Position numbers and translations under genes: made by a program
NCBI GenBank assembly: GCA_047947115.1
Contig: CP170459.1
Coordinates: 1,072,386-1,136,385 of the forward strand
Origin: Verrucomicrobiota bacterium
Lineage (GTDB): Bacteria > Verrucomicrobiota > Verrucomicrobiia > Limisphaerales > AAA164-E04
Length of the DNA stretch: 64,000 nt
Reading direction: 5' to 3'
Notes under the pieces: model-generated
What the model was told of the DNA's origin: nothing
Databases searched by the model: none
What the model saw: only the letters and a program-made list of their open reading frames with translations
Shown: piece after piece, positions 7,786-43,036 of the stretch
Numbering within the stretch: position 1 is the first letter of the stretch
Layout of the letters: every line of letters begins with the position of its first letter

Positions 7786-8214
7786 ATGCATGTCTCCAAA
7801 ACCATTACCAACTCATTCCATGATTTTCATTTGTTCGAAATCAGCAAAACCACGCATCACCCCGAGAAACGTGGCCCTTTCATGGTCTCCCAAAGCGGCA
7901 GCGCTCCCGGTGATCCCGAACTGCGGGAGTGCACCTTTGTGCTGACCAAGCGCGGCACCTGGATGCATCTTTATATCTTTTTCCTCATGTCTCACGAATT
8001 GCGTCACCGTGTGGCCGTCTTTGATTCGGTCGCCAAAGTCATGGAACTGGCCGAAACACTGGTCGGAAAACCCGTGGTGGAAACCATGGAATCCCTTCCC
8101 GAATTGCTGAACGATTCCGGGTTCAATCCAGCACACGAAGATCCGGTCAGTTCCGCGCTGATAGAAAAAGTCCGTAAGAAACATCCCAAAGGATTGCCTC
8201 CTTCTTTCGGGTGA
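7786..8214 (+). CDS. Hypothetical protein
   Basis: Coherent ORF filling the gap (MHVSKTITNSF...RGPFMVSQ...FVLTKRGTW); start uncertain (7753 or 7786). Confidence 0.65.
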   Translation: MHVSKTITNSFHDFHLFEISKTTHHPEKRGPFMVSQSGSAPGDPELRECTFVLTKRGTWMHLYIFFLMSHELRHRVAVFDSVAKVMELAETLVGKPVVETMESLPELLNDSGFNPAHEDPVSSALIEKVRKKHPKGLPPSFG

Positions 8215-8258
8215 ATCCGGATTGATTATTGCAGGGTCTATGATTCAATGAACGCATC

Positions 8259-8564
8259 ATGTTAGTCGTTCACGTATTTGTTCACGTCAAAGAAGACCAG
8301 GTGGAAGCGTTTAAAGCAGCCACACTGGAAAATGCGCGCAACAGTGTTCAAGAAACCGGCATAGCTCGATTCGACGTCGTCCAGCAGCAGGACGACCCAA
8401 CCCGATTCGTGCTGGTGGAAGCCTATCGGGATGCGGAAGCGCCGGCTCGGCACAAGGAAACCCAGCATTATCTCACCTGACGTGAAACGGTGGAAACCAT
8501 GATGGCCGAACCGCGTCACAGCATCAAATTTGAAAACTGTTTCCCCGGCGACGATGCCTGGTAG
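8259..8564 (+). pseudogene. Antibiotic-biosynthesis-monooxygenase/LsrG-like protein with an in-frame TGA
   Basis: [20 protein letters not shown]...[21 protein letters not shown]...DDAW*. TGA at 8478-8480 stands where the family normally has Trp. Confidence 0.8.
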
Positions 8565-9720
8565 GCCACCATTTGATTTTACCACGGCAGGACGCATTGT
8601 CTTTGGATGGGACCGCCTGCAGGAACTGCCAAAACTGGCAGCCGGGTTTGGGTCGCGCGTGCTGTTGGTTTGCGGCAGCAAGCCGAAACGCATTCAACCT
8701 TGCCTGCAAATTCTCGAACAGAATCATTGCAGGGTCGAGTGCTTCCAGGTTTTGAACGAACCCTCCATAGACACCATTGAAGCTGGCAGCCGGAAAGCCC
8801 GCGAAGGATTTGACTGGGTATTGGGGATGGGTGGAGGCAGCGTGCTCGACGCCGCAAAAGCCATCGCCATCATGACCCGACAATCCGGCGAGGTCATGGA
8901 TTACCTGAAAGTCATTGGCCACGGCAAACCTTTCCAATCACCAGGCCTCCCCATGGTCGCTGTGCCCACCACAGCGGGCACCGGATCCGAAGTCACGCGC
9001 AACGCCGTCCTTTCTTCCAACGAACACAAAGTCAAAGTCAGCATGCGGCATCCCTCCATGCTGCCCGATATGGCGCTGGTGGATCCGGCCCTGACCGTTT
9101 CATGCCCACCGACTATCACAGCTGCGACAGGGCTGGACGCATTGACTCAGCTGATCGAACCATTCCTATCGTGCAAATCCAATCCGATGACGGACGCCTT
9201 TTGCCGACAGGGCATTCCACTCGCCGCACAATCCATCCGAACCGTCGTGGAAAAACCCGAAGACAAACAGGCCAGAACCGACATGGCGCTTGCCAGTTTG
9301 CTTGGAGGTTTGGCCCTGGCCAATGCTGGGCTGGGTGCGGTGCACGGCATCGCCGGGCCATTTGGCGGCATGTTCCCGGGTGCGCCCCATGGGGCCATTT
9401 GTGCGGCGCTTCTTCCAGGTTCATTGGAAGTAAACCACCGGGTCATCAAAGACCGTCACCCGGATCACGCATGCCTTCAGCGCTTCGATGAATTGGCCAG
9501 AATGATAAACGGCGAAGCTCACGCGTCTTTTGAGAGCATGTTGAACTGGGTGGTCGAAACGATAGTCAAGTTAAACATCCCAGGCTTGGGAACATACGGG
9601 TTCAGCAACGAGCACCTGCCGGACCTGATCCAAAAATCAAAAAATGCCAGCAGCATGAAAGGCAATCCCATCGAACTGACCCACAACGAAATCCAAACAA
9701 TCCTCCAAAAAGCCGTCTAA
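8554..9720 (+). CDS. Iron-containing alcohol dehydrogenase
   Basis: GGGSVLDAAKA, PTTAGTGSEVT, DALTQ, GLGAVHG, PHG. Confidence 0.93.
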   Translation: MPGRPPFDFTTAGRIVFGWDRLQELPKLAAGFGSRVLLVCGSKPKRIQPCLQILEQNHCRVECFQVLNEPSIDTIEAGSRKAREGFDWVLGMGGGSVLDAAKAIAIMTRQSGEVMDYLKVIGHGKPFQSPGLPMVAVPTTAGTGSEVTRNAVLSSNEHKVKVSMRHPSMLPDMALVDPALTVSCPPTITAATGLDALTQLIEPFLSCKSNPMTDAFCRQGIPLAAQSIRTVVEKPEDKQARTDMALASLLGGLALANAGLGAVHGIAGPFGGMFPGAPHGAICAALLPGSLEVNHRVIKDRHPDHACLQRFDELARMINGEAHASFESMLNWVVETIVKLNIPGLGTYGFSNEHLPDLIQKSKNASSMKGNPIELTHNEIQTILQKAV

Positions 9721-29976: not shown

Positions 29977-30014
29977 GATTTGACACTCAATAATTATTTT
30001 TTTAATTTTTTTTG

Positions 30015-30221
30015 AGTCTTTTCGTGAACGTGCGTGTCAAAGGAAACTGAAGGCCAAATTCTGATCTATTTTAGTTCTCAATATGCTCAGTTCCCAGAAG
30101 GTCCTCTACCGTGTTGTGCGGCATGGTGGAGGGCCTTCATGTTTTCAGGGGCATATCTTATAAATAGTTCAGCCCAATCTGCTTATTAAAAAACGGCCAT
30201 GCCCCGGAGGCATGACCGTTT
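30015..30221 (+). ncRNA. Candidate small RNA divergent from the metal ABC operon
   Basis: Promoter TTGACA(29980)-N17-TAATTT; 17-bp hairpin 30097-30138 whose three G.U pairs form only on the + strand; no convincing ORF. Confidence 0.3.
30188..30221 (-). terminator. Intrinsic terminator of the FKBP gene
   Basis: Minus strand CGGTCATGCC-TCCGG-GGCATGGCCG-TTTTTT. Confidence 0.75.
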
Positions 30222-30248
30222 GAAAAAGGGACTGGGGTCTATCAGACC

Positions 30249-31088
30249 TTATTTCTTTTCGGCTGCTTTTTCTTTCTTCAGGTATTCGTCCACCTCATCC
30301 TGTTTGATGACTTCGATCTGAGCGCCTTTTTTGAGCTCTTCAGCGGATGGTACCTTGATAATGTCGCTGGTGATGGGAGCAGAAGCTTTCTTAGGCTTTG
30401 GAGGCTCTTCGATTCCAATCAGTTCCACTTCGAAAAGGAGAGTTGAATTGGGCGGGATATTTCGGTTCCCGTTTGGTCCATAGGCCAAATCTCCAGGGAT
30501 GAAGAGTTGCCACTTGGAGCCGACTTTCATCAACTGCAAGGCTTCCGTCCAACCACGAATCACGCCCGTGACACTGAATTTGGCAGGAGTGCCACGTGAA
30601 TAGGAGCTATCGAATTCCTTCCCATCGATGAATGTGCCACGGTAGTGCACGCTGACACGATCGGAGGCTGTGGGGATGGCCCCGGTGCCTTCGGTCAGGA
30701 CTTTGTATTGAAGACCGCTACCCAGAGTTTTGACACCCTCCTTGGTTTTATTCTCCTCGAGAAAGGCCTTTCCTATTTCCAGGTTCTCAGCAGCCTGTTT
30801 ATCGCGTTGAGCCTTTTGATTTTCACGCGCCAGATTGGTGACTTCCTGATAAACGGAGTTGATCTCACTATCATCCATCAAGCATTGGTCGTGGATGAAG
30901 TCCTTCATGCCATCCAGGAAGGTCTGCAGGTCCACATCAATGTTGTTCTGCTTCAGGATTCTTCCATAGTTGGCGCCGAGGCCGTAGCCGAGGCGTTTTT
31001 TCTGGTCTGCCAAGTCTTCCTTGGTCGCGGCTTGGGCAACCACCGTCGCAAGCCCCAAGATCATACATGCACGGATGATAAACTTCAT
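30249..31088 (-). CDS. fkpA: FKBP-type peptidyl-prolyl isomerase (FkpA/Mip)
   Basis: Signal peptide; FLEENKTKEGV...SGLQY, VHYRG, FDSS, VIRGWTEALQLM, LAYG. Confidence 0.93.
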   Translation of the reverse strand: MKFIIRACMILGLATVVAQAATKEDLADQKKRLGYGLGANYGRILKQNNIDVDLQTFLDGMKDFIHDQCLMDDSEINSVYQEVTNLARENQKAQRDKQAAENLEIGKAFLEENKTKEGVKTLGSGLQYKVLTEGTGAIPTASDRVSVHYRGTFIDGKEFDSSYSRGTPAKFSVTGVIRGWTEALQLMKVGSKWQLFIPGDLAYGPNGNRNIPPNSTLLFEVELIGIEEPPKPKKASAPITSDIIKVPSAEELKKGAQIEVIKQDEVDEYLKKEKAAEKK

Positions 31089-31306
31089 GGATATCACTTC
31101 TTATTGTTTAGGTTAATACACTCAATCAAAATTTTCTGAGCGGTCATCTGTAGCATTTCAATGCCGGTGCGTCTAGGGTTTTTGCTGGGTGTGAAGCGAT
31201 CGGTGCATGGCTTGGCCTGCCAATGGTGAGGCCTTTTGAATTCGAATGTCCAGAGGATACGCGTCGGGGATTCACGCTGTCGCGGGATTCTACCTTGGGG
31301 GTCGGG

Positions 31307-33535
31307 CTAATGCATATTGACCGGATCAATGTCCACGGCGGTCAATACTCCTTCGGGCAACCGTGTTTCGGCAATGAGTTGGGCAAGCTTGGCGCTCAGT
31401 CGGGACATGCGGGCACATTTCATCATGATTTGGTAGCGAAAGAAGGTTTCCGCTCTTTCAAGCGGTGCGGGTGAAGGTCCGGCAACCGTAAGATCGGGCA
31501 TGCTCTCTTTAAACTGCCCTATTAGCTGGGCAAGGTGCTGACCGCTTAGCTTAAGTTTTTCCTCGTTCTTGCCCCGCAGTGTGATCACCGCCAGTCGCAT
31601 GGCAGGTGGATACAATGTCTCTTTCCGAAACTCGATTTCCTGCTCGTAAAATCCGAGATAATCATGACGTCGCGCATATTGAATGGCCGCATGGAAAGGG
31701 GTAAAGGACTGAACATAAACATCCCCTTCCACATCCCCTCTCCCTGCCCTGCCCGCCACCTGTGTCAGGAGTTGGAAGGTGCGTTCGCCCGCCCGGAAAT
31801 CCGGCATGTGCAAACTTAGATCGGCATAGATGATCCCGACCAGGGTGACATTGGGGAAATGCAGCCCCTTGGCGATCATTTGTGTGCCGATGAGGATATC
31901 AACCTTGCCCAATCTGAAATCGGTGAGGATGCGTTTGTAATCTTCTTTTCGTTTGAGCGTATCCGAATCCATGCGCTCGATGCCTGCCTTGGGAAACAAC
32001 ACTTTCAACGTGTCTTCCACCTTCTCGGTGCCAATCCCGGCAAATCGAATCTCGTAACTTTTGCACGTATCGATCGGACAACAAACGGGAGCCTTTTCAT
32101 CATGACCACAAATGTGGCAGCGCAATTGTTGTTTTCGGCGGTGGTAAGTCAGGGAAATGCTGCAATTGGGGCACCCCGCCACAAAACCGCATTTGGGACA
32201 CTGCATGGAGGAGGCATAGCCACGGCGATTTAGAAACAGCATCGTCTGCTCACGGTTATCCAGTCGCTGTTGAATCGATTCCTTGAGTTGTTGAGAAAGG
32301 ATCGGAATGCCCTTGTTCTTTCTTCCTTCGCTTCTCATATCCACCACCCGCACCCAGGGCATGGTCTTGTTATCGGCGCGGGATGGCATTTCCAACAAAT
32401 GATATTTTCCCTTTTGCGTATTATAATAGGTCTCCAGAGAAGGGGTGGCCGAACCCAGAACCACCACTGCCTGTTCCCTCTGCGCGCGCACCACGGCCAC
32501 ATCGCGGGCATGATAACGCGGGGCTTCTTCCTGTTTGTAGGAGTGCTCGTGTTCTTCGTCGACAATGATCAATCCCAAGGGCTCTACCGGCGCAAAGACC
32601 GCGCTGCGGGCACCGATTACGATGCGCGCCCGGCCTTCACGGATCTTGTGCCATTCATCATGTCGTTCGCCATCGGACAAATGACTGTGCAACACAGCCA
32701 CCAGAGTTTTGTTTTTACCCGAAGAAAACCGGGCTTTGAATCGTTCAACCGTCTGAGGGGTCAGAGAGATTTCGGGAACGAGCACGATAGCTCCCTTCCC
32801 CTGGTCCATGGCATGATCAATGGCCTGGAGATAAACTTCGGTTTTGCCGCTTCCCGTTACACCATGCAGTAGAAAGACCGATGATGTCCTTTGATCCGGA
32901 TCCGCATCCAGGGCCTGCTCGATGGCGTCCAATGAACGGCGTTGTTCCTGATTCAATTCGAGGGATTCAGTAGGTACGATGTGCTCGTCCGCGTAGGGAT
33001 CGCGTTCAATCACTTCGTGCGTTATTCTGGCCACGCCGGCGTCTTCCAGTTTCTTGACGGTTGCCTTGGTCGACTGCGTCATTTTCAAGAACTCTTGAAG
33101 GGGCATTTCCTTCCACTCCTGAAGAATGGCTCGCAGTTCCTGCTGGCGCTTGGTCAACTTGATCTCGGAACCCACCGGTTCCATGGAACGGATGTGCAGC
33201 TGCTTTTTCCATCCCTCTTTCTCTTTGCGCACTGCCACTGGAAGGACGCTCTTCAACGCGGTCTCAATTGGACAGCAATAGTAAGCTGCCATCCAACGCG
33301 CCAGAGCCAGCACTTTGGGGGTCACCAGACTTCCTTTGCCGATGACATTCAGGATGGGTTTGAGTTTGTGGTGATCGGATTGATCGGGGAGTCCGGTGAC
33401 CACGCCCATCAGTTTGCGTCCACCAAAAGGAACTTTCACCCGCGCACCAATGTCCACCCGATCTTGAAACTCGGGAGGAACCAGGTAATCGAACTCCTTG
33501 CGGAGCGCGATTTCCAATGTGACGCGTGCGATCAT
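31307..33535 (-). CDS. priA: Primosomal protein N'
   Basis: GVTGSGKTEVY, DEEH, SATPS, Zn-finger Cys clusters, GTQMIAKG, QVAGRAGR. Confidence 0.97.
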   Translation of the reverse strand: MIARVTLEIALRKEFDYLVPPEFQDRVDIGARVKVPFGGRKLMGVVTGLPDQSDHHKLKPILNVIGKGSLVTPKVLALARWMAAYYCCPIETALKSVLPVAVRKEKEGWKKQLHIRSMEPVGSEIKLTKRQQELRAILQEWKEMPLQEFLKMTQSTKATVKKLEDAGVARITHEVIERDPYADEHIVPTESLELNQEQRRSLDAIEQALDADPDQRTSSVFLLHGVTGSGKTEVYLQAIDHAMDQGKGAIVLVPEISLTPQTVERFKARFSSGKNKTLVAVLHSHLSDGERHDEWHKIREGRARIVIGARSAVFAPVEPLGLIIVDEEHEHSYKQEEAPRYHARDVAVVRAQREQAVVVLGSATPSLETYYNTQKGKYHLLEMPSRADNKTMPWVRVVDMRSEGRKNKGIPILSQQLKESIQQRLDNREQTMLFLNRRGYASSMQCPKCGFVAGCPNCSISLTYHRRKQQLRCHICGHDEKAPVCCPIDTCKSYEIRFAGIGTEKVEDTLKVLFPKAGIERMDSDTLKRKEDYKRILTDFRLGKVDILIGTQMIAKGLHFPNVTLVGIIYADLSLHMPDFRAGERTFQLLTQVAGRAGRGDVEGDVYVQSFTPFHAAIQYARRHDYLGFYEQEIEFRKETLYPPAMRLAVITLRGKNEEKLKLSGQHLAQLIGQFKESMPDLTVAGPSPAPLERAETFFRYQIMMKCARMSRLSAKLAQLIAETRLPEGVLTAVDIDPVNMH

Positions 33536-33610
33536 GGGCCTATTACTCACGGAGAGGCACAGAGACGCAAAGGAAAAAGTGTTTGAGATATTTGCATTTT
33601 TACAGTCCTC

Positions 33611-33636
33611 GGAGGGTCGAGTTCCACCTCGATCCC
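33611..33636 (+). repeat. GGAG-type REP-like hairpin
   Basis: GGA-GGGTCGAG-TTCCAC-CTCGATCC-C. Confidence 0.4.
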
Positions 33637-33874
33637 ATACTTCCTCCTTATCAATCTACATGACCAAATGACGTGGAATGTGGGTAGCCATCGGTTCGCG
33701 TGCGACCACAGCCTTTCCATTGCAACTTGATGGCAGTTCAATCAACTCAAGGTTTGAAGTGGGTTTCCCGATAAAATCGGGAGAGCTTGACCCTCCGGAT
33801 CTACCAACACGGGCATTTCAGGAATGAGCGTTGCTTTTTGGTGATGATCTGGAATATTTAGCCCATCCAAGATC

Positions 33875-34948
33875 ATGAAAAGTTTGAAAGTATTATCTCG
33901 CATATCGGCGCTTGTCGCATTGTGCACTCTACAAATGAACGTGTGGGGTCAGAACAATCCCTGGCTGCACTTCGAAGGACAGGGTGGTCCGGGCAAGGGA
34001 AAACACATCGTTTTGATATCCGGAGACGAAGAATATCGCTCCGAAGAAACAAACCCCATGCTCGCGAAAATACTGAGCCAGCGCCACGGTTTCGACTGCA
34101 CCGTTCTTTTCTCACAGGATCCTGAAAACAATTACATCGATCCGAACAACCAACAAAGCATGCCCGGCCTGGAAGCCTTGAAGGAAGCGGACCTGGTGAT
34201 CATCGGGACGCGCTTCCGCCGATTAAACGATGAGCAATATCAGATCATCGCCGACTACCTCAACTCCGGCAAACCTATCATGGGATTTCGCACGGCCACC
34301 CATGCTTTTACCGGTCCGGGACAAACAGGCGATTTCCGTTGGGGACAATTCGGGCTCAAGATACTGGGCGAAACATGGATCAGCCATCACGGTCATCACA
34401 AAGGACAGGGAACCCTTGCCATCGTCGAAGAGAAAAATGCCAAACACCCCGTGCTGAAAGGCGTTGGCAAAATCTTCGGACCCACGGACGTTTATGGCAT
34501 TCGAAACCTGGATCCCGCGCAGTCTACTATTCTTCTCCGCGGCGCGGTCACGGCCTCCTTGGATGAGGATTCAGCTCCGATTGATGGTGAAAAAAATGAT
34601 CCCATGATGCCCCTGGCATGGCTGCGCACCTACACCGCCCCGAATGGGACCAGTCAGGGCCATGCTTTCTGCACCACCCTGGGCGCTTCGGTGGATATGC
34701 TGGATAAAGATCTGCGACGCTTGTTCGTAAACGTCGCGTATCACCTCACAGGATTGAAAGTACGCAAAGCGGCGGATGTCACCTTTGTGGACGATTTCGC
34801 TCCGACCTTCTACGGATTTAACAACGAAGAAGGCTATTATAAAAAGCGCAACCTGAAGATCAGCGATTTCGAACTGGGCAGCAACGCCTCCACCGGGCTG
34901 GCCAATCCAAAATCAGCTCCCGCATGGCGCCCCGTGCTGCCCTATTGA
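33875..34948 (+). CDS. Secreted ThuA-like (class I glutamine amidotransferase fold) protein
   Basis: HIVLISGDEEYRSEE, GFRTATHAF, GETWISHHG, PLAW, TTLG. Confidence 0.85.
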   Translation: MKSLKVLSRISALVALCTLQMNVWGQNNPWLHFEGQGGPGKGKHIVLISGDEEYRSEETNPMLAKILSQRHGFDCTVLFSQDPENNYIDPNNQQSMPGLEALKEADLVIIGTRFRRLNDEQYQIIADYLNSGKPIMGFRTATHAFTGPGQTGDFRWGQFGLKILGETWISHHGHHKGQGTLAIVEEKNAKHPVLKGVGKIFGPTDVYGIRNLDPAQSTILLRGAVTASLDEDSAPIDGEKNDPMMPLAWLRTYTAPNGTSQGHAFCTTLGASVDMLDKDLRRLFVNVAYHLTGLKVRKAADVTFVDDFAPTFYGFNNEEGYYKKRNLKISDFELGSNASTGLANPKSAPAWRPVLPY

Positions 34949-34975
34949 AAATTTCGATCACCCACTCTTCCAGCT

Positions 34976-35029
34976 CGGGAGAATCTTTGGCTGTCAATCG
35001 ATGCCATAAGATTCTCCCGCTTGTTTTTT
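34976..35029 (+). terminator. Intrinsic terminator
   Basis: CGGGAGAATCTTTGGC...GCCATAAGATTCTCCCG followed by CTTGTTTTTT. Confidence 0.65.
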
Positions 35030-35038
35030 CCGAGCCCT

Positions 35039-35102
35039 ATTGAGACCGAATCTCAAAAAAGAATTGACGTTGTCTGTGTTTTGATTGAGACTCAGTCTCA
35101 TT
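35039..35102 (+). promoter_or_regulatory. Sigma70 promoter flanked by two Fur-like boxes
   Basis: ATTGAGACCGAATCTCAAA (35039) and ATTGAGACTCAGTCTCATT (35084) on either side of the -35 TTGACG (35064). Confidence 0.7.
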
Positions 35103-35161
35103 AGCGGGAAGGTTGACAGAATCTCCTTTCAAAAAGAATCATCAAAAACAGCTGAAAATTC

Positions 35162-36613
35162 ATGTCGTATCATCGTATCGTATCGATTCGTCTTGTTGCC
35201 GTGCTGCTTGCTATCGGCTCATTAACTCAACTAGCGATCGCTCAGGATTCCGCCAAAAAAAGTTCGGTGGATGACCGGATTGAAAAACTGGAGCAGACCT
35301 TGGAAGCTGTCCTGACCGAACTTCAGGAGCTGAAATCAGAGCGAAACAAACTGGCTGAAGAAGCAAAGCAACAACGAGAACAGACCGAGGCGCTGGAAGA
35401 ACAACAACAAGCCATGCTGGAAGAAATGGCCGCCCAGGAAGAAGCCCTCGCATCGGCTCCGTCTTCAGGACCGGCCATCACCTTGACGGGAAACAACATT
35501 GCCAATCCCATCGCCCCACCCCAACGTCCCGGCCTCACTCGAAACACTTTACCAGCCGGATTGATGCTGGGCGCATATGGGGAACATCATTTCAATTTCA
35601 CCGAAGGAGCGGGAGGGGATCAATCCGATATTCACCGGTTCGTGGGTTTCATGGGGTATCAGTTTGCCGACTGGGTTTTCCTGAACACGGAAACGGAAAT
35701 TGAACACGCCTTTGTCAATGATGGTGACGGTGAGATTTCGCTGGAACAATTCTTCTTTGATTTCAGCATTGCCAATCCTGTCAATATCCGTGTCGGACGC
35801 ACCTTGCATCCAGCTGGCATCGTCAACCGCTATCATGAACCCACCACCTTCAACGGGACCGAACGCCCAACCTATTCGCAGCGTATCTTGCCTAGCACCT
35901 GGTCCATTGACGGTATCGGTGTATGGGGACGTGTCACCGACTGGTTGAGCTACGAAAGTTATGTGCATGCGGGACTGGATGGATCAGGGTTCAGTGGTGC
36001 TTCCGGTCTTCGTGGCGGTCGCATGAAAGAACGTCCCAGTTTGAATGACGTCGGCATCAGTTCTCGTATTGATTTTTATCCGCTCATCGCGGCGGAGTCG
36101 GATACGGAATGGAAATGGCGCAGTGGTTTTTCCTATTCCAACATCGGTGTTGAAAACGGCGATCAGGGTCGAAACGCAGGACGTCCCACTGAAAACGTTG
36201 GAATTTGGGCCGCCGATACTCAGTTTAGCTGGCGTAAATGGGATTTCAGGACAGAAGCAGCTTATGTGGATAATCCGGCTGCAATGAATCCTATGGTGGG
36301 TGCTGGCACTTCGGATGAGTTATTCGGTGCTTATGTGGAATTGGGTTACCACTTCTGGCCGGATTCCTGGAAAACCGGCAAACTTGAGAACTCCGATGCC
36401 GTGGCGTTTGTTCGCTATGAATACATCGATCCACAGTCCGGGAAAACATTGGCGGGTCCCGCCAACCGCAATCTGTCCCTGCGTGAAACGACTTTGGGTA
36501 TCGGATTCTACCCCATGCCGCGCGTGGTCCTAAAAGCAGATTATACCTTTGTGGAATCACTGGCGGCCGACCTCGCGGACCGTGTTGCTTTGGGGGTTGG
36601 TTACGCCTTTTAG
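35162..36613 (+). CDS. Outer-membrane porin (OprO/P-like) with N-terminal coiled coil
   Basis: Signal peptide, coiled coil, AYGEHHFN...HRFV...EIEH...HEPTTF...ERP...PSTW, terminal GVGYAF. Confidence 0.8.
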   Translation: MSYHRIVSIRLVAVLLAIGSLTQLAIAQDSAKKSSVDDRIEKLEQTLEAVLTELQELKSERNKLAEEAKQQREQTEALEEQQQAMLEEMAAQEEALASAPSSGPAITLTGNNIANPIAPPQRPGLTRNTLPAGLMLGAYGEHHFNFTEGAGGDQSDIHRFVGFMGYQFADWVFLNTETEIEHAFVNDGDGEISLEQFFFDFSIANPVNIRVGRTLHPAGIVNRYHEPTTFNGTERPTYSQRILPSTWSIDGIGVWGRVTDWLSYESYVHAGLDGSGFSGASGLRGGRMKERPSLNDVGISSRIDFYPLIAAESDTEWKWRSGFSYSNIGVENGDQGRNAGRPTENVGIWAADTQFSWRKWDFRTEAAYVDNPAAMNPMVGAGTSDELFGAYVELGYHFWPDSWKTGKLENSDAVAFVRYEYIDPQSGKTLAGPANRNLSLRETTLGIGFYPMPRVVLKADYTFVESLAADLADRVALGVGYAF

Positions 36614-36639
36614 AAGATCAAGAAACCGCTGGCCAAAGG

Positions 36640-38196
36640 ATGGCTCCTCAACATATCACAACCCATCACGCTATGAATCTCGTCCGTATCATTTCAAAGT
36701 CCATCTGGGCACTTGCGATAGGCAGTCTGTGGCTGAGTCCTCTGGTTGCCGAGGAATACATGACGGAGAATCAGGCGCTGAAACTGGCGTTCCCGAAAGC
36801 CGATGAGTTTGATCTTCACCGCATGATAGCCACCAAGACGCAGCGCGACGATCTCGCGGAGCGTCTTGGAGTTCGTTTACCCAGTCGTTTCTTCAAATAC
36901 TACCGATGCAAGCAGGGTGGCAAACTCATCGGACGAGCTATCGTCGATGAAGCCCCCGGCAAATACCATCCCTTCGGATATCTCCTCGCAGTCGATCCCG
37001 CCCACAAGGTGCGCTCCGTGGAAATATTGAACTACCACGAAAAATACGGGTTCGAAGTCAAACAAGATTCCTTCAAGGATCAATTCAAAGGGCACTCCCC
37101 CACAGACAGCAAACACCTGGAGCGCGACATTCGGATCATCGCCGGCGCAACAATCTCCTGCCAATCATTGATTGAATCCATCAAGCGTCAGTTGATTTAT
37201 CTCGAAGTCATGACCGAAGCGAAGGATACAAAGCAATCCGGTTTGATGCCTACACCTTCCGGCAATCTTCCTGGACCAATTCGCGAGACAACATCCGAGG
37301 AAAAGATGGTCCACCGCAACCGGGGCCGTTTGCTGATGGGAACGTTTCTCGAAATCCAAGCCTTTGGTCCATCCGAAGCCAGCATGGACCATGCGATGAA
37401 CCTGGCGTTCGAGGAAGTGGCCCGGATCGAACAACTACTCAGCACCTACAGGCCCGACTCGATCATTTCAAAACTCAACCAGCATGGGGCCGAAAAACCG
37501 GTTTCATTGAATCGAGAAGTATTCGACCTTCTGGAACGCAGCAAAGAAATCACATCCCAAACCAAAGGAGCTTTCGATATCACCGTCGGCCCCATTGTCC
37601 AATTGTGGCGCCATGCCAAGGAAGGTATCCCGGATGTAACTGCCATTGAACAATCCACCAAGAATGTCGGCATGCATCACGTACAACTGGACGAGAAAAG
37701 CCTGACAGCCTGGTTCGACACAAAAGGTGTCCAAGTGGATCTGGGTGGCATTGGAAAAGGCTACGCCATGGACCGTGCGGCTGAAATTCTGAAACAGCAA
37801 GGCATCCAACGTGCCATGCTTTCATTTGGCGGGCACATTCTGGCACTCGATCCACCACCTGGAAAAAGCGGGTGGAACATTTGGATCCGTGACCCGGACC
37901 AGGAAGACGCATTCATCCATGAAATGGATATCCAGAATGCTTCCGTGGCCACCACGGCAAACGACCAGCGGGGATATTGGATCAACGGCAAACGCTATTC
38001 ACACATCATCCACCCCGCTACAGGACTCCCGGTTGAAGGCAAAGCTTCTGTCACCGTCATCACGAAAAAAGCGGAAGAAGGCGACGCCCTATCAACGGCC
38101 TTGTTTGCATCGAAAGAAGGGCACATGGAAAACTTGCATTTCCCAACAGCGCTCTCACTGGGGTCAGGGAGCATCCTCTACAGTCAATTCCATTGA
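36640..38196 (+). CDS. Fusion of an FMN-binding domain and an ApbE FAD:protein FMN transferase
   Basis: N-terminal: EILNYHEKYG.EV...QFKG...IAGATIS. C-terminal: MGT, S.Y..DS.IS.LN, GAFDITVGP, DLGGIGKGY, SHII.P.TG, DALSTALF. Start 36640 or 36673. Confidence 0.88.
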   Translation: MAPQHITTHHAMNLVRIISKSIWALAIGSLWLSPLVAEEYMTENQALKLAFPKADEFDLHRMIATKTQRDDLAERLGVRLPSRFFKYYRCKQGGKLIGRAIVDEAPGKYHPFGYLLAVDPAHKVRSVEILNYHEKYGFEVKQDSFKDQFKGHSPTDSKHLERDIRIIAGATISCQSLIESIKRQLIYLEVMTEAKDTKQSGLMPTPSGNLPGPIRETTSEEKMVHRNRGRLLMGTFLEIQAFGPSEASMDHAMNLAFEEVARIEQLLSTYRPDSIISKLNQHGAEKPVSLNREVFDLLERSKEITSQTKGAFDITVGPIVQLWRHAKEGIPDVTAIEQSTKNVGMHHVQLDEKSLTAWFDTKGVQVDLGGIGKGYAMDRAAEILKQQGIQRAMLSFGGHILALDPPPGKSGWNIWIRDPDQEDAFIHEMDIQNASVATTANDQRGYWINGKRYSHIIHPATGLPVEGKASVTVITKKAEEGDALSTALFASKEGHMENLHFPTALSLGSGSILYSQFH

Positions 38197-38362
38197 TCAC
38201 ATCCGATCGTAACAACCGCCCTCTGGAGTACTCCAGGTATCAAGCGTTGATTGGATCGTTTCTTTGGGATGTTCCCTTGCGTCGTGAGCAGCAGAGGATG
38301 AATGCATCAAGGATCCGCATCGAGATCCACGCAGTTGCGGGACAAGCTGACACATTTTAACT

Positions 38363-38794
38363 CTACTCGGGGCGTACTTCGTCTTCAACGAGAGCTTCGC
38401 CGGCGACAATATCTGCCGCGATGGTCCTTCCGTGGGCGGGACCGGTGACTTTGACTTCTCCGACTTTCTGGTTTTTACGGTAGATGAAGAGTCGCTGGTC
38501 AACCTGAGGCATGGGGTGCAGGGGAAAATCGAGGATGACAAATCGCAACGCCGTGTGAACCGATGCCACCTGGCCGATAGGGGCGTTGACCACCGGGATG
38601 ATGGTGGTTTTGGATTGGTAGGTTTTTCCGGATGCGGATTTGGTGTTGCCCAATGCGCCGTCGTTGCCTGTCCAAACCGGGTCATGTTCCATTCCGGGAG
38701 GAGTGGACAAAGCCTGTTTCTTACAAGCACTCAAACCCATGATGAGTAGGGTAAAAAGGACGAAATAACGCATGGGAGCAATAAACGCGCGCAA
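38363..38794 (-). CDS. Hypothetical lipoprotein
   Basis: Lipobox LSAC; RFVILDF...YRKNQKVGEVKVTGP...ADIVAGE. Confidence 0.7.
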   Translation of the reverse strand: MRAFIAPMRYFVLFTLLIMGLSACKKQALSTPPGMEHDPVWTGNDGALGNTKSASGKTYQSKTTIIPVVNAPIGQVASVHTALRFVILDFPLHPMPQVDQRLFIYRKNQKVGEVKVTGPAHGRTIAADIVAGEALVEDEVRPE

Positions 38795-38903
38795 CCATCA
38801 AAAGTCAAGTCGTGGTCGAGGTCGTTCATTGCATCGTGCTGGTGTTGTGGTTTAGGATCCCGATGGTTCGTCGGCAGTTGCCATTCGAACTTTCTGATAG
38901 AAT

Positions 38904-39719
38904 ATGAAACAAGCCATTCCATCCAGAACCATCCCCTGCGCCTTGACCGTGGCAGGTTCCGACAGTGGCGGGGGAGCAGGGATTCAAACGGATCTCAAGA
39001 CCTTTGCCGTTTTGAAGGTTCATGGCACGAGTGTGCTGACATGTATTACAGCACAAAACCCGAAGGAGGTGAAAGCGATTCAACCTGTCTCATCCCGTGT
39101 GGTTTTTTCGCAGTTTCAGGCTTTGAACAATGGATTAAAGCCAGTAGCGGTGAAATCGGGCATGTTGTTCTCAAAATCCATCGTGCAATCCGTCCTTCGT
39201 GGCCTTGAGCTGTTGAAGCCACGTTGGTATGTCTTGGATCCGGTGATGATTGCCACCAGTGGTGCTCAGTTGCTCCAGGGCAGCTGCATTGAGGTCATCC
39301 AAAATCGATTGATCCCCATGGCAAGTCTTGTCACGCCCAATATCGCGGAAGCAGAGGTGTTACTGGGACGGACCATTCGGGGTTCCGCTCAAGCTAAAGC
39401 ATCCGTTCGCCAACTGGTGGATCGATATGAAGTCCCATTTTTGCTCAAGGGCGGTCATCTCCCCTCGCGCGGGAAGGTGATCGACTATTTTTGTGATGGT
39501 CATACATTAAATGCCATGGAATCGGCCTACATCAAGGGCAAAGACACGCACGGCACCGGATGCACCTATTCGGCGGCCATCACTGCTCATCTTGCAATGG
39601 GTGCTTCACTGGAGTCGGCGGTTGTTAAAGGAAAGTCCTTCATTGCCGAAGCCATTGAACAATCCTACCGAACTGGTGCTCATCAAGCTCTGAATGTTTG
39701 GAAAGGAGCAACTACATGA
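38904..39719 (+). CDS. thiD: Hydroxymethylpyrimidine/phosphomethylpyrimidine kinase
   Basis: AGSDSGGGAGIQTD, TAQN, DPVM, TPN..E, LKGGH, HGTGCT. Confidence 0.95.
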   Translation: MKQAIPSRTIPCALTVAGSDSGGGAGIQTDLKTFAVLKVHGTSVLTCITAQNPKEVKAIQPVSSRVVFSQFQALNNGLKPVAVKSGMLFSKSIVQSVLRGLELLKPRWYVLDPVMIATSGAQLLQGSCIEVIQNRLIPMASLVTPNIAEAEVLLGRTIRGSAQAKASVRQLVDRYEVPFLLKGGHLPSRGKVIDYFCDGHTLNAMESAYIKGKDTHGTGCTYSAAITAHLAMGASLESAVVKGKSFIAEAIEQSYRTGAHQALNVWKGATT

Positions 39720-40864
39720 GAACCGTTTATCTCGATTATAACGCCACCACACCTCTCGACGAGGGGGTTTGGGAAACCATGGTTCCCCATATGCGGAATC
39801 ATTATGGCAACCCATCCAGCATCCATCGGGTGGGTCGGGATGCCAAAGCGCATCTGGATGATGCGAGGTATGATCTTTCCGAGTTGTGGCAATGCAAACC
39901 CAGCGAAATCGTGTTCACCAGCGGGGGTACGGAAAGCAACAATCTGGCCATCTTTGGAACGGCGCGACTGCTCAAATCGAAGGGTCGACATCTCGTTTGC
40001 AGCGCCGTCGAACATCATGCCGTGTTGCATTGCTTTGAGTACCTGTCCGAAAAGGAGGGGTTTGATCTTACCATCCTGCCCGTTGACGGCGAAGGTCGAG
40101 TCGACCCAAATTCCGTCAAGGAAGCCATTCAAGAGGATACACAATTGGTTTCGGTGATGGCTGCCAACAATGAAATCGGGACAATTCAGCCCATCGCGGA
40201 AATCGGCGCCATCTGTCGTGAACGCGGCGTGCTTTTTCACACGGATGCCGTGCAATGGTTTGGCAAAGAACCGGTAGAATCCATCCATCAGTTCAATGCG
40301 GACCTGGTTTCGGTATGTGCCCATAAATTGCACGGTCCCAAAGGTTCGGGTGCGTTGTTCATTCGTTCTCCCCTGTTGCCGGATAAAATCCTTTTTGGAG
40401 GTGCTCATGAGAACGAACGCCGTGCTGGAACGGAAAATCTTGCGGCCATTGTAGGACTGGTCGAAGCCTTGAAACGGTTTTCCAATCCACCGGTTTTTAG
40501 TCAGCAAACCATCCGCGAAGCAAATCAATGCCTGCGGGAATGCCTGCTTACGGTTCCGGAAGTAGACATCCTGACCCCCCAAACGGGCAGTCTTCAAAAT
40601 ACGCTTTCATTTACGGTTAACGGTTGCGACAGCATCGGTTTGCTGGCAGGATTGGATTTGGAAGGCATTTGTGCTTCGAGTGGTTCGGCCTGCTCAGTGG
40701 GGTCTTTGGAACCCTCCCACGTCGTTCTGGCAATGGGAATTAGCCGCGACAAAGCCAACGCTTTGGTGCGCTTATCGTTAGGTAAAGAGAACACTCAGGA
40801 AGATATGATTTACGCAAATGAGATGATTCCACGTGTGCTCAAGCGGTGCCTGATTGTGAAATGA
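39716..40864 (+). CDS. Cysteine desulfurase (IscS/NifS group I)
   Basis: YLDYNATTP, TSGGTESNN, ANNEIG, AHKLHGPKG, SSGSAC. Confidence 0.95.
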   Translation: MRTVYLDYNATTPLDEGVWETMVPHMRNHYGNPSSIHRVGRDAKAHLDDARYDLSELWQCKPSEIVFTSGGTESNNLAIFGTARLLKSKGRHLVCSAVEHHAVLHCFEYLSEKEGFDLTILPVDGEGRVDPNSVKEAIQEDTQLVSVMAANNEIGTIQPIAEIGAICRERGVLFHTDAVQWFGKEPVESIHQFNADLVSVCAHKLHGPKGSGALFIRSPLLPDKILFGGAHENERRAGTENLAAIVGLVEALKRFSNPPVFSQQTIREANQCLRECLLTVPEVDILTPQTGSLQNTLSFTVNGCDSIGLLAGLDLEGICASSGSACSVGSLEPSHVVLAMGISRDKANALVRLSLGKENTQEDMIYANEMIPRVLKRCLIVK

Positions 40865-41074
40865 TGGCCCAACAAGCTGTGAATAACTTTGTGAATAGTG
40901 TGCGTAGCCTCAACAAGTGGGGCTAACCCGCTGGATATCAATTTGTTGTTCACATGGCAGATTCGTTGTAAGTCCTTGAGCCAGCCTTGACACCGCCACT
41001 TGTTTGGCTTATTCACAGGGCTTAATTTTAATACATTTTGTCTCTCTTTGAGAAATAATAGACATCCATAGCGC
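40865..41074. other. Putative chromosomal replication origin (oriC)
   Basis: DnaA boxes TGTGAATAA 40878, TGTGAATAG 40890, TTGTTCACA 40946, TTATTCACA 41009; IHF-consensus TATCAATTTGTTG 40936; last box followed by GGGC and an AT-rich run; upstream of dnaN; apparent C-rich to G-rich switch across the window. Confidence 0.75.
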
Positions 41075-42193
41075 ATGAATATCACCATCGCCAAAGAAGA
41101 ATTGGTTCGCGGACTGCAATCTGTGCAGAACGTGGTCAATCCGCGCACCACGCTCCCCGTCCTCTCCAACGTCCTGCTGGTCGCTGAAGAGGGCAAATTG
41201 ATCCTTACAGCGACCGATCTGGATGTCACGGTCTCCTGCACCGTCACAGCCGACGTTCAAGAGGAAGGCAAGGTAACTCTTCCCGCCAAAAAAATGGTGG
41301 GAATCGTCCGTGAACTTTCCACGCCTGAAATTGAACTTCAGGTCGACGAGAAGAATGTGTGCAGCATCCACGCCGGAGCTTCTTTCTTCAAAATCGTTGG
41401 TCTGGGAGCCAATGAGTTCCCTCCCCTGGCCAAGTTTGAGGAGAAAAACAAGGTGTCCATTTCCCAGGAACGGCTCAGAGGCATGCTTAGGAAGACTTCT
41501 TATGCAGTTTCCACCGAGGAATCTCGTTATGTTCTCAACGGTATCTTTTTAAGCATCAAAGAATTCAAGCTGACCATGGTTGCCACGGACGGACGGCGTC
41601 TGGCATTGGTGGAAGAAGAGCTCGAGGAAACACCCGATGTGCAGGTACAGTTCATTGTTCCAACCAAGGCCATCAACGAACTCAATCGCTTGCTGGGGGA
41701 TGAGGGAACTGTGGAGGTGCAGTTTCAGGACAATCAGGCATCGTTTTTTCTTTCGGGCGAAGGTGAGAATTCAGCACTGATGATCACAAAGCTCATTGAA
41801 GGCAATTATCCGAACTACTCGCAGGTCATTCCCAAGAAGTGCAGTGAACGGGTTCCTTTGGTCCGCGAAGAGCTCCTGCAGGCCCTCAGGCGCGCGGAAA
41901 TCATGACCAGTGACAAAGCGCACTCCGTCAAATTCGCTTTTACCCAAAACAACCTCCAAATTACTGCGAACACCCCTGATGTGGGCGAGGCCAGGGAAAA
42001 TATTGCCATCAACTATTCCGGCGAGGATATCACCGTGTCCTTCAACCCGCTTTACATGATGGATCCCCTGAAAGTGCTCGAAGACGATGAGGTCTTTCTG
42101 GAAATGTCCGACGAGCTGAGTCCCGGCGTGATCAAGGTCCAGACGCCTTTCATCTACGTCATCATGCCCATGCGGACCAATACCGTTTCTTAA
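41075..42193 (+). CDS. dnaN: DNA polymerase III beta clamp
   Basis: LPVLSNVL, ATDLD, SRYVLNG, VATDGRRL, LIEGNYPNY, VIMPMR. Confidence 0.98.
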   Translation: MNITIAKEELVRGLQSVQNVVNPRTTLPVLSNVLLVAEEGKLILTATDLDVTVSCTVTADVQEEGKVTLPAKKMVGIVRELSTPEIELQVDEKNVCSIHAGASFFKIVGLGANEFPPLAKFEEKNKVSISQERLRGMLRKTSYAVSTEESRYVLNGIFLSIKEFKLTMVATDGRRLALVEEELEETPDVQVQFIVPTKAINELNRLLGDEGTVEVQFQDNQASFFLSGEGENSALMITKLIEGNYPNYSQVIPKKCSERVPLVREELLQALRRAEIMTSDKAHSVKFAFTQNNLQITANTPDVGEARENIAINYSGEDITVSFNPLYMMDPLKVLEDDEVFLEMSDELSPGVIKVQTPFIYVIMPMRTNTVS

Positions 42194-42271
42194 GGTTCAC
42201 GATCAAAGTAACTTAACCTGACTCATAGCCACCCGGATCTTCGATCCAGTTGGTATCAAAAAGCCATTGCC

Positions 42272-43036
42272 ATGATTGAAACCGTCAAAACCATCGCATC
42301 AGAAGCCGGAGAAAAGATCTTATCCTTTTACGGACAACCGATTCCGGTTGAGAAAAAGTCGGATGACAGCCCTTTGACCAAGGCTGATCTGGCGGCTCAT
42401 CACGCCATTGTCGCGGGATTAAAAGACCTCGACAACACCATTCCGGTTTTGTCAGAGGAAGCTAAAGAGATTCCTTTTGAGGAAAGGCGAAGTTGGGATC
42501 GGTTTTGGGTGGTGGATCCGATGGACGGCACCAAGGAATTCATCAAGCAGACCGGCGAGTTTACCGTCAATATAGCCTTGGTCCAAGGCGGTATATCTTC
42601 GCTGGGTGTGGTTTACGTTCCGGCAAAGAACCTGTTTTATTGGGCTGAGAAAGGAAAAGGAGCATTCAAACAAGTCAAGGAGGAAGCTTCTCTTGCCATC
42701 AAAGTGAGGAAAGCAGACCCTGAAGCTCTCTCCATTGTGGCCAGTCGGGATCATGCTGGTCCCATGGTTCAGGAACTTCTGGAGCGATACCCCACGGCAC
42801 AGACCCAGAGCATGGGCAGTTCCTTGAAATTTTGTTTAGTGGCCGAGGGTAAAGCCGATGTCTATTTGCGAGACGTGCCGACCATGGAATGGGACACAGC
42901 AGCGGCTCAATGTATTGTGGAAGAATCCGGTGGTGTCGTGAAGGATATCGATGGCAGTGTGCTTCTCTACAACAAAGAGGTGTTGAGAAATCCCTCCATT
43001 ATCACCTTGGGAGATCCGTTGTTTGCGTGGAAATAA
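42272..43036 (+). CDS. cysQ: 3'(2'),5'-bisphosphate nucleotidase
   Basis: SPLTKAD, LSEE, DPMDGTKEF, GSSLKFCLVAEG, EWDTAAAQ. Confidence 0.95.
   Translation: MIETVKTIASEAGEKILSFYGQPIPVEKKSDDSPLTKADLAAHHAIVAGLKDLDNTIPVLSEEAKEIPFEERRSWDRFWVVDPMDGTKEFIKQTGEFTVNIALVQGGISSLGVVYVPAKNLFYWAEKGKGAFKQVKEEASLAIKVRKADPEALSIVASRDHAGPMVQELLERYPTAQTQSMGSSLKFCLVAEGKADVYLRDVPTMEWDTAAAQCIVEESGGVVKDIDGSVLLYNKEVLRNPSIITLGDPLFAWK

Follow-up and report, generated by a model that had tools for sequence, protein, structure and literature searches.

In a 64,000-nt stretch of a Verrucomicrobiota genome (GenBank assembly GCA_047947115.1, contig CP170459.1, positions 1,072,386 to 1,136,385 of the forward strand; hereafter the window, whose own numbering is used below), positions 35,039 to 38,196 hold a two-gene operon in which a gene for an outer-membrane porin (gene 1) is followed by a gene for an exported protein (gene 2) that joins a flavin mononucleotide (FMN)-binding domain, FMN_bind, to the flavin transferase ApbE. 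We read this locus, with a probability of about 0.6, as an iron-starvation operon, which under the control of a Fur-family regulator would provide a porin and a self-flavinylating periplasmic carrier reducing Fe(III) for FeoB. Its novelty lies in the form that an iron-linked flavinylation cassette takes here: two genes, a fusion, no partner, and a lineage-specific Fur-type operator.

In the mechanism we favour, a Fur-family repressor would bind two TGAGAc-N3-gTCTCA palindromes, a form of Fur box proper to the Planctomycetes-Verrucomicrobia-Chlamydiae (PVC) lineage, which flank or overlap the promoter. Low iron would lift the repression, and the porin and the exported fusion would be made. The 16-strand outer-membrane porin with its periplasmic coiled-coil stalk would admit iron species, and the ApbE domain would attach FMN, taken from flavin adenine dinucleotide (FAD), covalently to Thr171, either in cis by way of a flexible linker or between two copies of the protein. 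The resulting flavoprotein would serve in the periplasm as a carrier of one or two electrons for the iron species coming from the porin, most likely reducing Fe(III) to Fe(II), which would then be imported by the co-regulated FeoB. The electrons in most other genomes probably come from a neighbouring four-transmembrane (4-TM) protein, Aq_1264_TM, which is missing here. The analysis itself shows the structure of the genes, their domain families and folds, the conservation of motifs and operator, the association with iron genes, and purifying selection; that Fur represses the operon, that the flavin is attached and ferric iron reduced, and where the electrons come from is what we infer. Flavinylated proteins of the periplasm have begun to emerge as an alternative to cytochromes in redox processes beyond the cytoplasm. 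This locus, with two genes and with enzyme and substrate in a single chain, would be the simplest natural test object for their possible role in iron uptake.

Operator boxes before the porin operon and the feo genes

The two ATTGAGA-N5-TCTCA boxes reported in the initial annotation are present at 35039-35055 and 35084-35100 (start-to-start distance 45 nt) and recur across genomes. Their count in the window alone was not significant (four or more matches in 7 of 100 shuffles); it is because they are conserved across genomes that they exceed chance. The exact core TGAGA-N5-TCTCA was found 10 times in the 6.08-Mb source genome and its reversed control not once. With at most one mismatch, ATTGAGANNNNNTCTCAAT has four genomic sites, all of them in the roughly 10% of the sequence that a crude open reading frame (ORF) mask defines as non-coding. 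Two of these sites are the boxes of the porin operon, the third lies about 35 nt before feoA-feoA-feoB, and the fourth precedes an msrP-like gene.

The feo and porin sites were then compared among relatives. Of 21 feoB loci retrieved, 19 were compared (all but L117 and L118); the box was exact in 11 and had one mismatch in three (14/19 in total), at a distance of -573 to -697 from feoB except in L111 (-290). All six same-genus and all six same-family loci carried it (12/12; 10 exact, two with one mismatch), and five same-order loci were without it. At the porin, a box with at most one mismatch was located in or just upstream of the start region in seven of eight other PVC loci (L013, L094, L095, L097, L047, L016 and L032) and was not found within one mismatch in L096, the chance expectation being about 0.004 per 120 nt by our own arithmetic for a uniform base composition. 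Two exact boxes with a spacing of 46-47 nt also occur in the sister lineages L152-L154 and L155, whose porins are 94% and 75% identical to that of gene 1, respectively. Their arms are constant while the central bases vary, and a three-way alignment of the upstream regions had no conserved blocks other than the two boxes and, between them, a TTGAC element. The promoter had been described as straddled by the boxes, which is plausible. The TTGAC element is invariant in the three lineages. The only match of the promoter scanner is situated downstream of the two boxes and lacks conservation, L152 having TTGGTA at this place.

From these comparisons the box is predicted to be the operator of a Fur-family regulator, with Feo and the porin module as its conserved targets, and we take iron as the probable signal because these are the targets conserved. 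The Fur-type, iron-linked control put forward in the initial annotation gained from the box before feoAAB and before the porin family elsewhere, as well as from Fur, FeoB, FTR1-like and ABC (ATP-binding cassette) import genes next to the module in other genomes; iron control through a Fur-family repressor is a well supported prediction. If true, the TGAGAc-N3-gTCTCA operator class would characterise the iron regulon in Verrucomicrobia and Planctomycetes, for which no Fur box was found in the literature by title or abstract, and the conserved operator could be used to predict iron regulons in both. The regulon was judged by short degenerate patterns, which may have missed weak members.

For comparison we used TGATAAT-N-ATTATCA, which we take to be the canonical Fur consensus and which is enterobacterial. 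Like such 7-1-7 Fur boxes, those of the source genome are 15-bp inverted repeats with a single central base and an outer TGA...TCA, occur in two copies at a promoter of predicted iron-uptake genes, and have a copy before feoAB. They differ in half-site positions 4 and 6 (TGAGAc against TGATAAT). In favour of our interpretation, the source genome offers no competing Fur motif, as the canonical consensus has no intergenic site within one mismatch in it, and it has two Fur-family genes.

Several observations count against the regulatory part of our interpretation. Neither box comes within two mismatches of the enterobacterial consensus. The NCBIfam PerR and Fur models score alike on both Fur-family paralogues, always below the cut-offs. 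Upstream of C1:4842146-4842502, the paralogue whose HHH/CxxC features are typical, no such box was recognised, so its autoregulation through this box was rejected. The msrP-like gene (C1:526133-527204), which encodes a stand-alone molybdoenzyme of the periplasmic MsrP type (PF00174), has a good box in the source genome only; as the box is missing, at up to one mismatch, from the loci of all 12 relatives, it was dropped as a regulon member, and its lack of conservation makes a single genomic match weak evidence. Contigs from four RNA libraries cover the operon, and such contigs cannot show transcription, starts or strand.

Part of this evidence would suit a regulator other than an iron sensor, namely another metal or peroxide sensor of the Fur family (PerR-, Mur- or Zur-like), with the module serving envelope redox, oxidative stress, or manganese or another metal. 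The undecided PerR and Fur scores, the box before the MsrP-type gene and the departure from the canonical consensus all point in this direction. We nevertheless regard it as unlikely, since feoAAB and the porin module alone stay associated with the box across genomes, the msrP box is not kept, and the neighbours of the module elsewhere are FeoB, a Fur-family gene, an FTR1-like permease and ferritin. The second Fur-family paralogue (C1:213243-213701), moreover, has a distinct palindrome of its own, which leaves one regulator for each motif. This perfect 7-1-7 palindrome, TTAGAAT-C-ATTCTAA at C1:213183-213203, is located 43 nt before the start of the gene and exists as a single exact copy in the genome, which suggests that a PerR- or Irr-like regulator controls its own gene in a regulon apart.

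The core of box 2 was also noticed as an exact copy at C1:80217-80231, where it falls into the promoter region of a gene of the prepilin-type N_methyl/DUF1559 kind; some 14 nt beside it are identical to the sequence beside the feoA box.

The fusion protein and the porin

That gene 2 joins FMN_bind to ApbE was borne out by both Pfam and Foldseek. Pfam placed FMN_bind (PF04205) at residues 114-183 (26.3 bits, cut-off 22) and ApbE (PF02424) at residues 233-492 (250.1 bits, cut-off 25.6, E 3.5e-74), and NCBIfam RnfG models matched residues 32-189 below their cut-offs (33.6 vs 230 bits). The structural model (predicted local distance difference test, pLDDT, 85.8; predicted TM score, pTM, 0.60) consists of an N-terminal hydrophobic helix and two well-folded domains joined by a linker that is disordered at residues 196-219. 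With the C-terminal domain, Foldseek retrieved solved ApbE, Ftp and FmnB structures (4ifw, E 3.6e-23, root-mean-square deviation 2.1 over 279 columns), the best structural match of gene 2 being the flavin-trafficking protein of T. pallidum. With the N-terminal domain it retrieved RnfG (9eri_G, E 5.2e-6; 8ahx_G, E 6.5e-6) and NqrC (4u9s, E 7.2e-5), and a sequence-only search of the PDB with this domain gave chance-level matches only. RnfG and NqrC are the FMN-carrying periplasmic subunits of Rnf and Na+-NQR; the N-terminal domain shares with them the fold, the Pfam family and an acceptor Thr in G-A-T, but it lacks adjacent Rnf or Nqr membrane subunits, and its motif has neither the Asp at -6 nor the Ser/Thr at -3.

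The motifs of the protein are IAGATIS (residues 167-173), GGHI (397-400), ATTAND (437-442) and HIIHP (455-459). According to passages of PMC12052999, the catalytic residues of the ApbE of V. cholerae are Ser241 in a T-S-G motif, His257 and Asp285, and the flavinylation substrate motif is D-x-x-[S/T]-G-A-[S/T], in which an Asp-to-Ala change has a minor effect. Aligned to solved structures, the triad of gene 2 is Thr439-His455-Asp482. Of 94 fused relatives, 74 have S-H-D and 20 have T-H-D at these positions, gene 2 among the latter, with His and Asp kept in all 94. In the substrate motif the core residues G169, A170 and T171 agree, and the acceptor Thr is conserved in 93 of the 94; as first noted, IAGATIS keeps this Thr and has Ala in the usual Ser/Thr place. 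The residue at -3 is in fact variable in the fused family (Thr 42, Ala 25, Ser 25-26), and a conserved Asp stands at -8 instead of -6.

The ApbE motifs had been called deviant at three places, and this stood for two of them. GGHI is no real deviation, because its third position varies among solved ApbEs (GGD, GGN, GGA). TTAND (within ATTAND) and HIIHP are real variants of the sub-clade of gene 2. The chemistry we propose is opposed by three features of the protein: the catalytic Ser of ApbE is replaced by Thr439, the flavinylation motif is off at two positions (Arg165 at -6 and Ala168 at -3), and gene 2 has His in place of the Asp of HxxDP, where the 94 fused relatives have Asp (65), Asn (23) or His (5). 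ApbE activity nonetheless appears plausible because Thr439 keeps the hydroxyl. Self-flavinylation of the gene 2 product is likewise plausible, because the same parts occur in split and reversed forms, the acceptor Thr is kept in 93/94 relatives, and the catalytic His and Asp are retained.

A different use of the same domains would make the fusion mainly a general flavin transferase or trafficking protein, with the porin importing flavins or FAD in low iron and the FMN domain as a flavin-binding accessory. Apart from the non-canonical motif, it is favoured by the T. pallidum protein as the best structural match and by the faster evolution of the ApbE domain than of the N-terminal domain (ratio of nonsynonymous to synonymous substitution rates, dN/dS, against the sister lineage 0.141 vs 0.062). 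We consider it quite unlikely, given the conserved acceptor Thr, an N-terminal domain as constrained as the housekeeping neighbours, and FMN_bind genes that stay beside the porin in the split forms; three further ApbE loci in the source genome are available for other targets.

Fusion of ApbE to its own substrate is described in passages of PMC12052999 for the fumarate reductases of trypanosomatids, which like gene 2 have the transferase and its target in one polypeptide. The trypanosomatid fusion is eukaryotic and intracellular, with an N-terminal ApbE less than 25% identical to bacterial ApbEs, whereas gene 2 encodes a bacterial, exported protein with an RnfG/NqrC-like target and a C-terminal ApbE (N-terminal in the Nitrospiria locus L027).

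Gene 1 had been annotated as a coiled-coil porin, and its AlphaFold model agrees with this (mean pLDDT 83.9, pTM 0.72): a 63-residue helix at residues 36-98 is followed by a disordered part (99-126) and 16 strands (134-482). Foldseek assigned the fold to trimeric porins, with OmpM1 of Veillonella first (E 9.5e-13), then OmpU, OprP (2o4v, E 1.2e-11, TMq 0.51) and OprO (4rjw, E 1.9e-10). Pfam itself gave no match on the gene 1 protein, including PF07396 at E 0.01, and a precomputed column lists Porin_O_P (PF07396) for most of the 120 homologues listed (38-61% identity). The 16-strand trimeric-porin fold is common to gene 1, OmpM1 and OprP/OprO (PF07396), and the N-terminal coiled coil ahead of the barrel in OmpM1 resembles the stalk of the gene 1 porin, which has no SLH domain before it. 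Unlike OprP and OprO, the protein falls below the Pfam threshold for PF07396 and has invariant Glu, His and Asp beside invariant Arg. For a porin family, this one is unusually well conserved (mean column identity 42%), and its invariant residues include H143, D156, H158, E177, E179, E181, H182, E195, H225, E234 and several Arg. The Glu residues that alternate along one strand would suit a specific site, perhaps one for metal binding, better than a general pore.

A wider cassette, its membrane partner and selection on the operon

The fusion is genuine and recurrent and not an assembly artefact, as 94 of the 120 best gene 2 matches are fused proteins of at least 450 aa, many labelled Planctomycetes or anammox bacteria, and a sister lineage has the same synteny. 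An exhaustive search with the N-terminal domain only gave 1741 cluster representatives at E <=0.001. Among the best 150 of these 1741, 52 have at least 430 aa, four have 300-429 aa and 94 have fewer than 300 aa, with fused and stand-alone forms interleaved.

To describe the module more widely, we ran local hidden Markov models on 80 loci, and this survey of architectures recovered fused, split and reversed-order forms. Porin, N-terminal domain and ApbE occur together in 12 of the 80 loci, from several phyla. The N-terminal domain and ApbE are fused in L013, L016, L020, L027, L032 and L047, form two overlapping ORFs in L031, and are adjacent separate genes in L019 and L022; the gene order is apbE-porin-FMN_bind in L029 and L041 and FMN_bind-4TM-apbE-porin in L061. 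L027 (Nitrospiria, 7986-9500) has the two domains in the opposite order (ApbE 12-289, FMN_bind 413-492), which implies that its fusion arose independently. This gene is preceded by a Fur-family gene and two porin paralogues and followed by a binding-protein-dependent ABC permease and ATPase. Other neighbours of the module are FeoB (L020), an FTR1-like permease (L019) and ferritin (L022).

In seven of the loci there is also a gene for a 4-TM protein, homologous among them, which is about 165 aa long and has the motif E-x-[TA]-H-F-H. ESM Atlas identifies it as PF27139 Aq_1264_TM (score 0.96, TM 0.87), a family that gave no match in the Pfam copy used, and it may be a membrane electron or metal partner. 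On this gene-content evidence, the source operon is best described as a trimmed two-gene fused form of a wider porin/FMN_bind/4-TM/ApbE cassette, of which no published description was found in the literature on ApbE, porin and FMN-binding. It had first been taken for a minimal unit, but the operon is a trimmed copy of the wider cassette, which in most relatives includes the 4-TM protein, and not an invention of its own.

The box precedes the porin in two Planctomycetes metagenome-assembled genomes, L016 and L032. In L016 (1969-9635) it also stands before a second, unassigned protein of 473 aa with a CxxCH motif, and the gene for this protein is followed by those for an EB_dh haem-domain protein, a DUF2325 protein, a lipoprotein and the fusion, making up a larger, haem-linked operon.

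ApbE-flavinylated extracytosolic proteins have been tied to iron assimilation in PepSY-like, MsrQ-like and P19/FTR1 clusters, according to the main text of Meheust et al. 2021 (eLife, PMC8238504). The source operon resembles these systems in its exported FMN_bind and ApbE, its predicted Fur control and the iron-transporter neighbours of the module; clusters without a transmembrane electron-transfer core are recognised in that text too. It is unlike them in having a dedicated outer-membrane porin and in carrying substrate and enzyme in one chain, and the partner in its relatives is the 4-TM Aq_1264_TM protein, compared with PepSY, MsrQ or DUF4405 in the systems of that text. The words 'porin', 'fused' and 'fusion' do not occur in the main text of PMC8238504, whose large supplementary tables may list such clusters, and neither 'porin' nor 'fusion' was found in the text portions of the 2024 follow-up (PMC11334425).

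The initial annotation had seen no PepSY or reductase partner adjacent to the operon, which the flanks confirm. Three further results, obtained across the genome and beyond, tell against the mechanism we favour. The source genome has 0 PepSY_TM and 0 Ferric_reduct matches. It also has no Aq_1264_TM, either by hmmsearch of six-frame ORFs of at least 60 aa at E 0.01 or by tblastn at E 0.1. Finally, the porin or module was found in 0/7 congeners' and 0/21 same-family genomes searched, and the module is therefore dispensable; distant porin copies occur in four of 39 same-order genomes. Aq_1264_TM was not found on the sister contigs L152-L154 either, and the msrP-like gene has no MsrQ-type partner (PF01794) anywhere in the source genome. 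DUF4405 was rejected as an electron donor, as the best of its three genome matches is no specific lead but an ordinary cytochrome b, encoded in a locus of the Rieske/cytochrome bc type.

It has to be asked whether such an operon could be a functionless leftover of a larger cassette that has lost its membrane partner. Besides the absent 4-TM protein, the distribution lends this some weight: the module was not found in seven of seven congeners, and one of them, G006 (C116:1-400 and the end of C89; L125, L135), retains only a fusion remnant of about 70 aa (residues 420-489, 56% identity). This remnant is situated about 277 nt downstream of the thuA orthologue, at the position corresponding to 34949-38196 of the window, and the stump indicates that the operon was once at this locus and has been deleted there. 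In the source lineage, by contrast with such decay, both frames are intact. The metagenome contigs L152-L154 have the same synteny, with flanking proteins 94-96% identical, and the gene 2 product is 84.8% identical to its counterpart (L152:4001-5539), the excess of change being concentrated in the signal peptide, linker and ApbE domain. The dN/dS against this sister lineage, which is also without a 4-TM gene, is 0.040 for the porin and 0.149 for the whole of gene 2, compared with 0.047-0.064 for neighbouring genes; only the linker is near neutral (0.61). Both genes are under purifying selection and the operon is not decaying, and both operator boxes are conserved. We therefore rejected the leftover as most improbable on its dN/dS. 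Loss of the 4-TM protein under continued purifying selection raises the question of the electron source.

Another possibility is an outward electron conduit, a flavin analogue of the porin-cytochrome complexes, with the FMN domain in or under the barrel and extracellular Fe(III) or another compound as acceptor. The genes for the porin and the FMN domain are indeed immediate neighbours in every arrangement, including apbE-porin-FMN_bind, and the unusual conservation of the porin family with its invariant His, Glu and Asp would suit a conduit too. A 16-strand barrel would probably be narrow for a folded domain of about 160 aa, however, the searches described above found no inner-membrane donor in the source genome, and an operon co-regulated with an Fe(II) importer is more in keeping with assimilation than with respiration, which makes such a conduit very unlikely.

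Of all these readings, the iron-starvation operon with a reducing carrier for FeoB is the one we prefer. It would be a further step to suppose that the porin and flavoprotein alone form a working new iron route, with a metal-selective porin (the Glu/His/Asp cluster), no dedicated membrane partner and a PVC-specific class of Fur operator; this is possible but, in our opinion, doubtful.

Layout of the locus

The features of the operon and its upstream region are compiled in Table 1. The terminator claimed ahead of the operon was recognised as a hairpin whose 12-nt arms (34976-34987 and 35008-35019) pair perfectly and which ends in a T-run, its 3' tail being CTTGTTTTTT. It had been missed by the terminator scanner because its 20-nt loop exceeds the loop limit of 8. 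The organisation as a two-gene operon was upheld as well: both genes run in the same direction with a gap of 26 nt, or 59 nt if gene 2 starts at Met12, a start we regard as probable because the homologues have 507 aa, and the terminator scan gave no terminator-like site on the + strand between them.

Table 1 Features of the porin/FMN_bind::ApbE operon (window positions) and 4-TM genes of other loci
Feature	Position	Strand	Remarks
ThuA-like gene	33875-34948		upstream flank of the operon
Intrinsic terminator-like hairpin of the ThuA-like gene	34976..35029	+	perfect 12-nt arms, 20-nt loop, T-run
Operator box 1 (predicted)	35039..35057	.	core TGAGACC-G-AATCTCA, 7-1-7 palindrome; kept in sister lineages L152-L154 and L155
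Candidate -35 element TTGACG, located between boxes 1 and 2	35064..35069	+	TTGAC invariant in three lineages (alignment)
Operator box 2 (predicted)	35084..35102	.	core TGAGACT-C-AGTCTCA, perfect 7-1-7 palindrome; kept in sister lineages
Sigma-70-like match TTGACA-18-AATCAT	35113..35142	+	promoter scanner; downstream of both boxes, not conserved
Gene 1, porin, 483 aa	35162..36613	+	signal peptide ~1-27, coiled-coil helix 36-98, disordered linker 99-126, 16-strand barrel 134-482
Gene 2, FMN_bind::ApbE fusion, 518 aa	36640..38196	+	probable start Met12 at 36673, giving 507 aa
RnfG/NqrC-like FMN-binding domain (residues 38-196)	36751..37227	+	Pfam PF04205, Foldseek
Thr171 codon, predicted FMN acceptor in A-G-A-T	37150..37152	+	
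Flexible linker (residues 197-227)	37228..37320	+	pLDDT <50 for 196-219
ApbE flavin-transferase domain (residues 228-495)	37321..38124	+	Thr439 37954-37956, His455 38002-38004, Asp482 38083-38085
4-TM protein, other loci	L013:9611-10120, L017:9595-10140, L019:7364-7867, L022:4686-5204, L029:7474-7980, L041:11124-11609, L061:8539-9150		

The operon is flanked by the ThuA-like gene, an unassigned lipoprotein gene on the opposite strand, and thiD. An Rfam scan of 33500-39500 at E 0.1 matched no family, so no FMN or other riboswitch was recognised in this region, and horizontal transfer was rejected on composition, with a GC content of 0.50-0.53 over 30000-43000 and no anomaly.

Near-identical DNA is held by estuary and seawater metagenomes (13-17 differences per 3.4 kb). 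Across four estuary runs box 1 showed no variant, and position 35116 was A>G in three of the four. In one estuary contig (run X10), the 47 nt from 34966 to 35012, which include most of the terminator hairpin, are missing, an apparent natural deletion variant.

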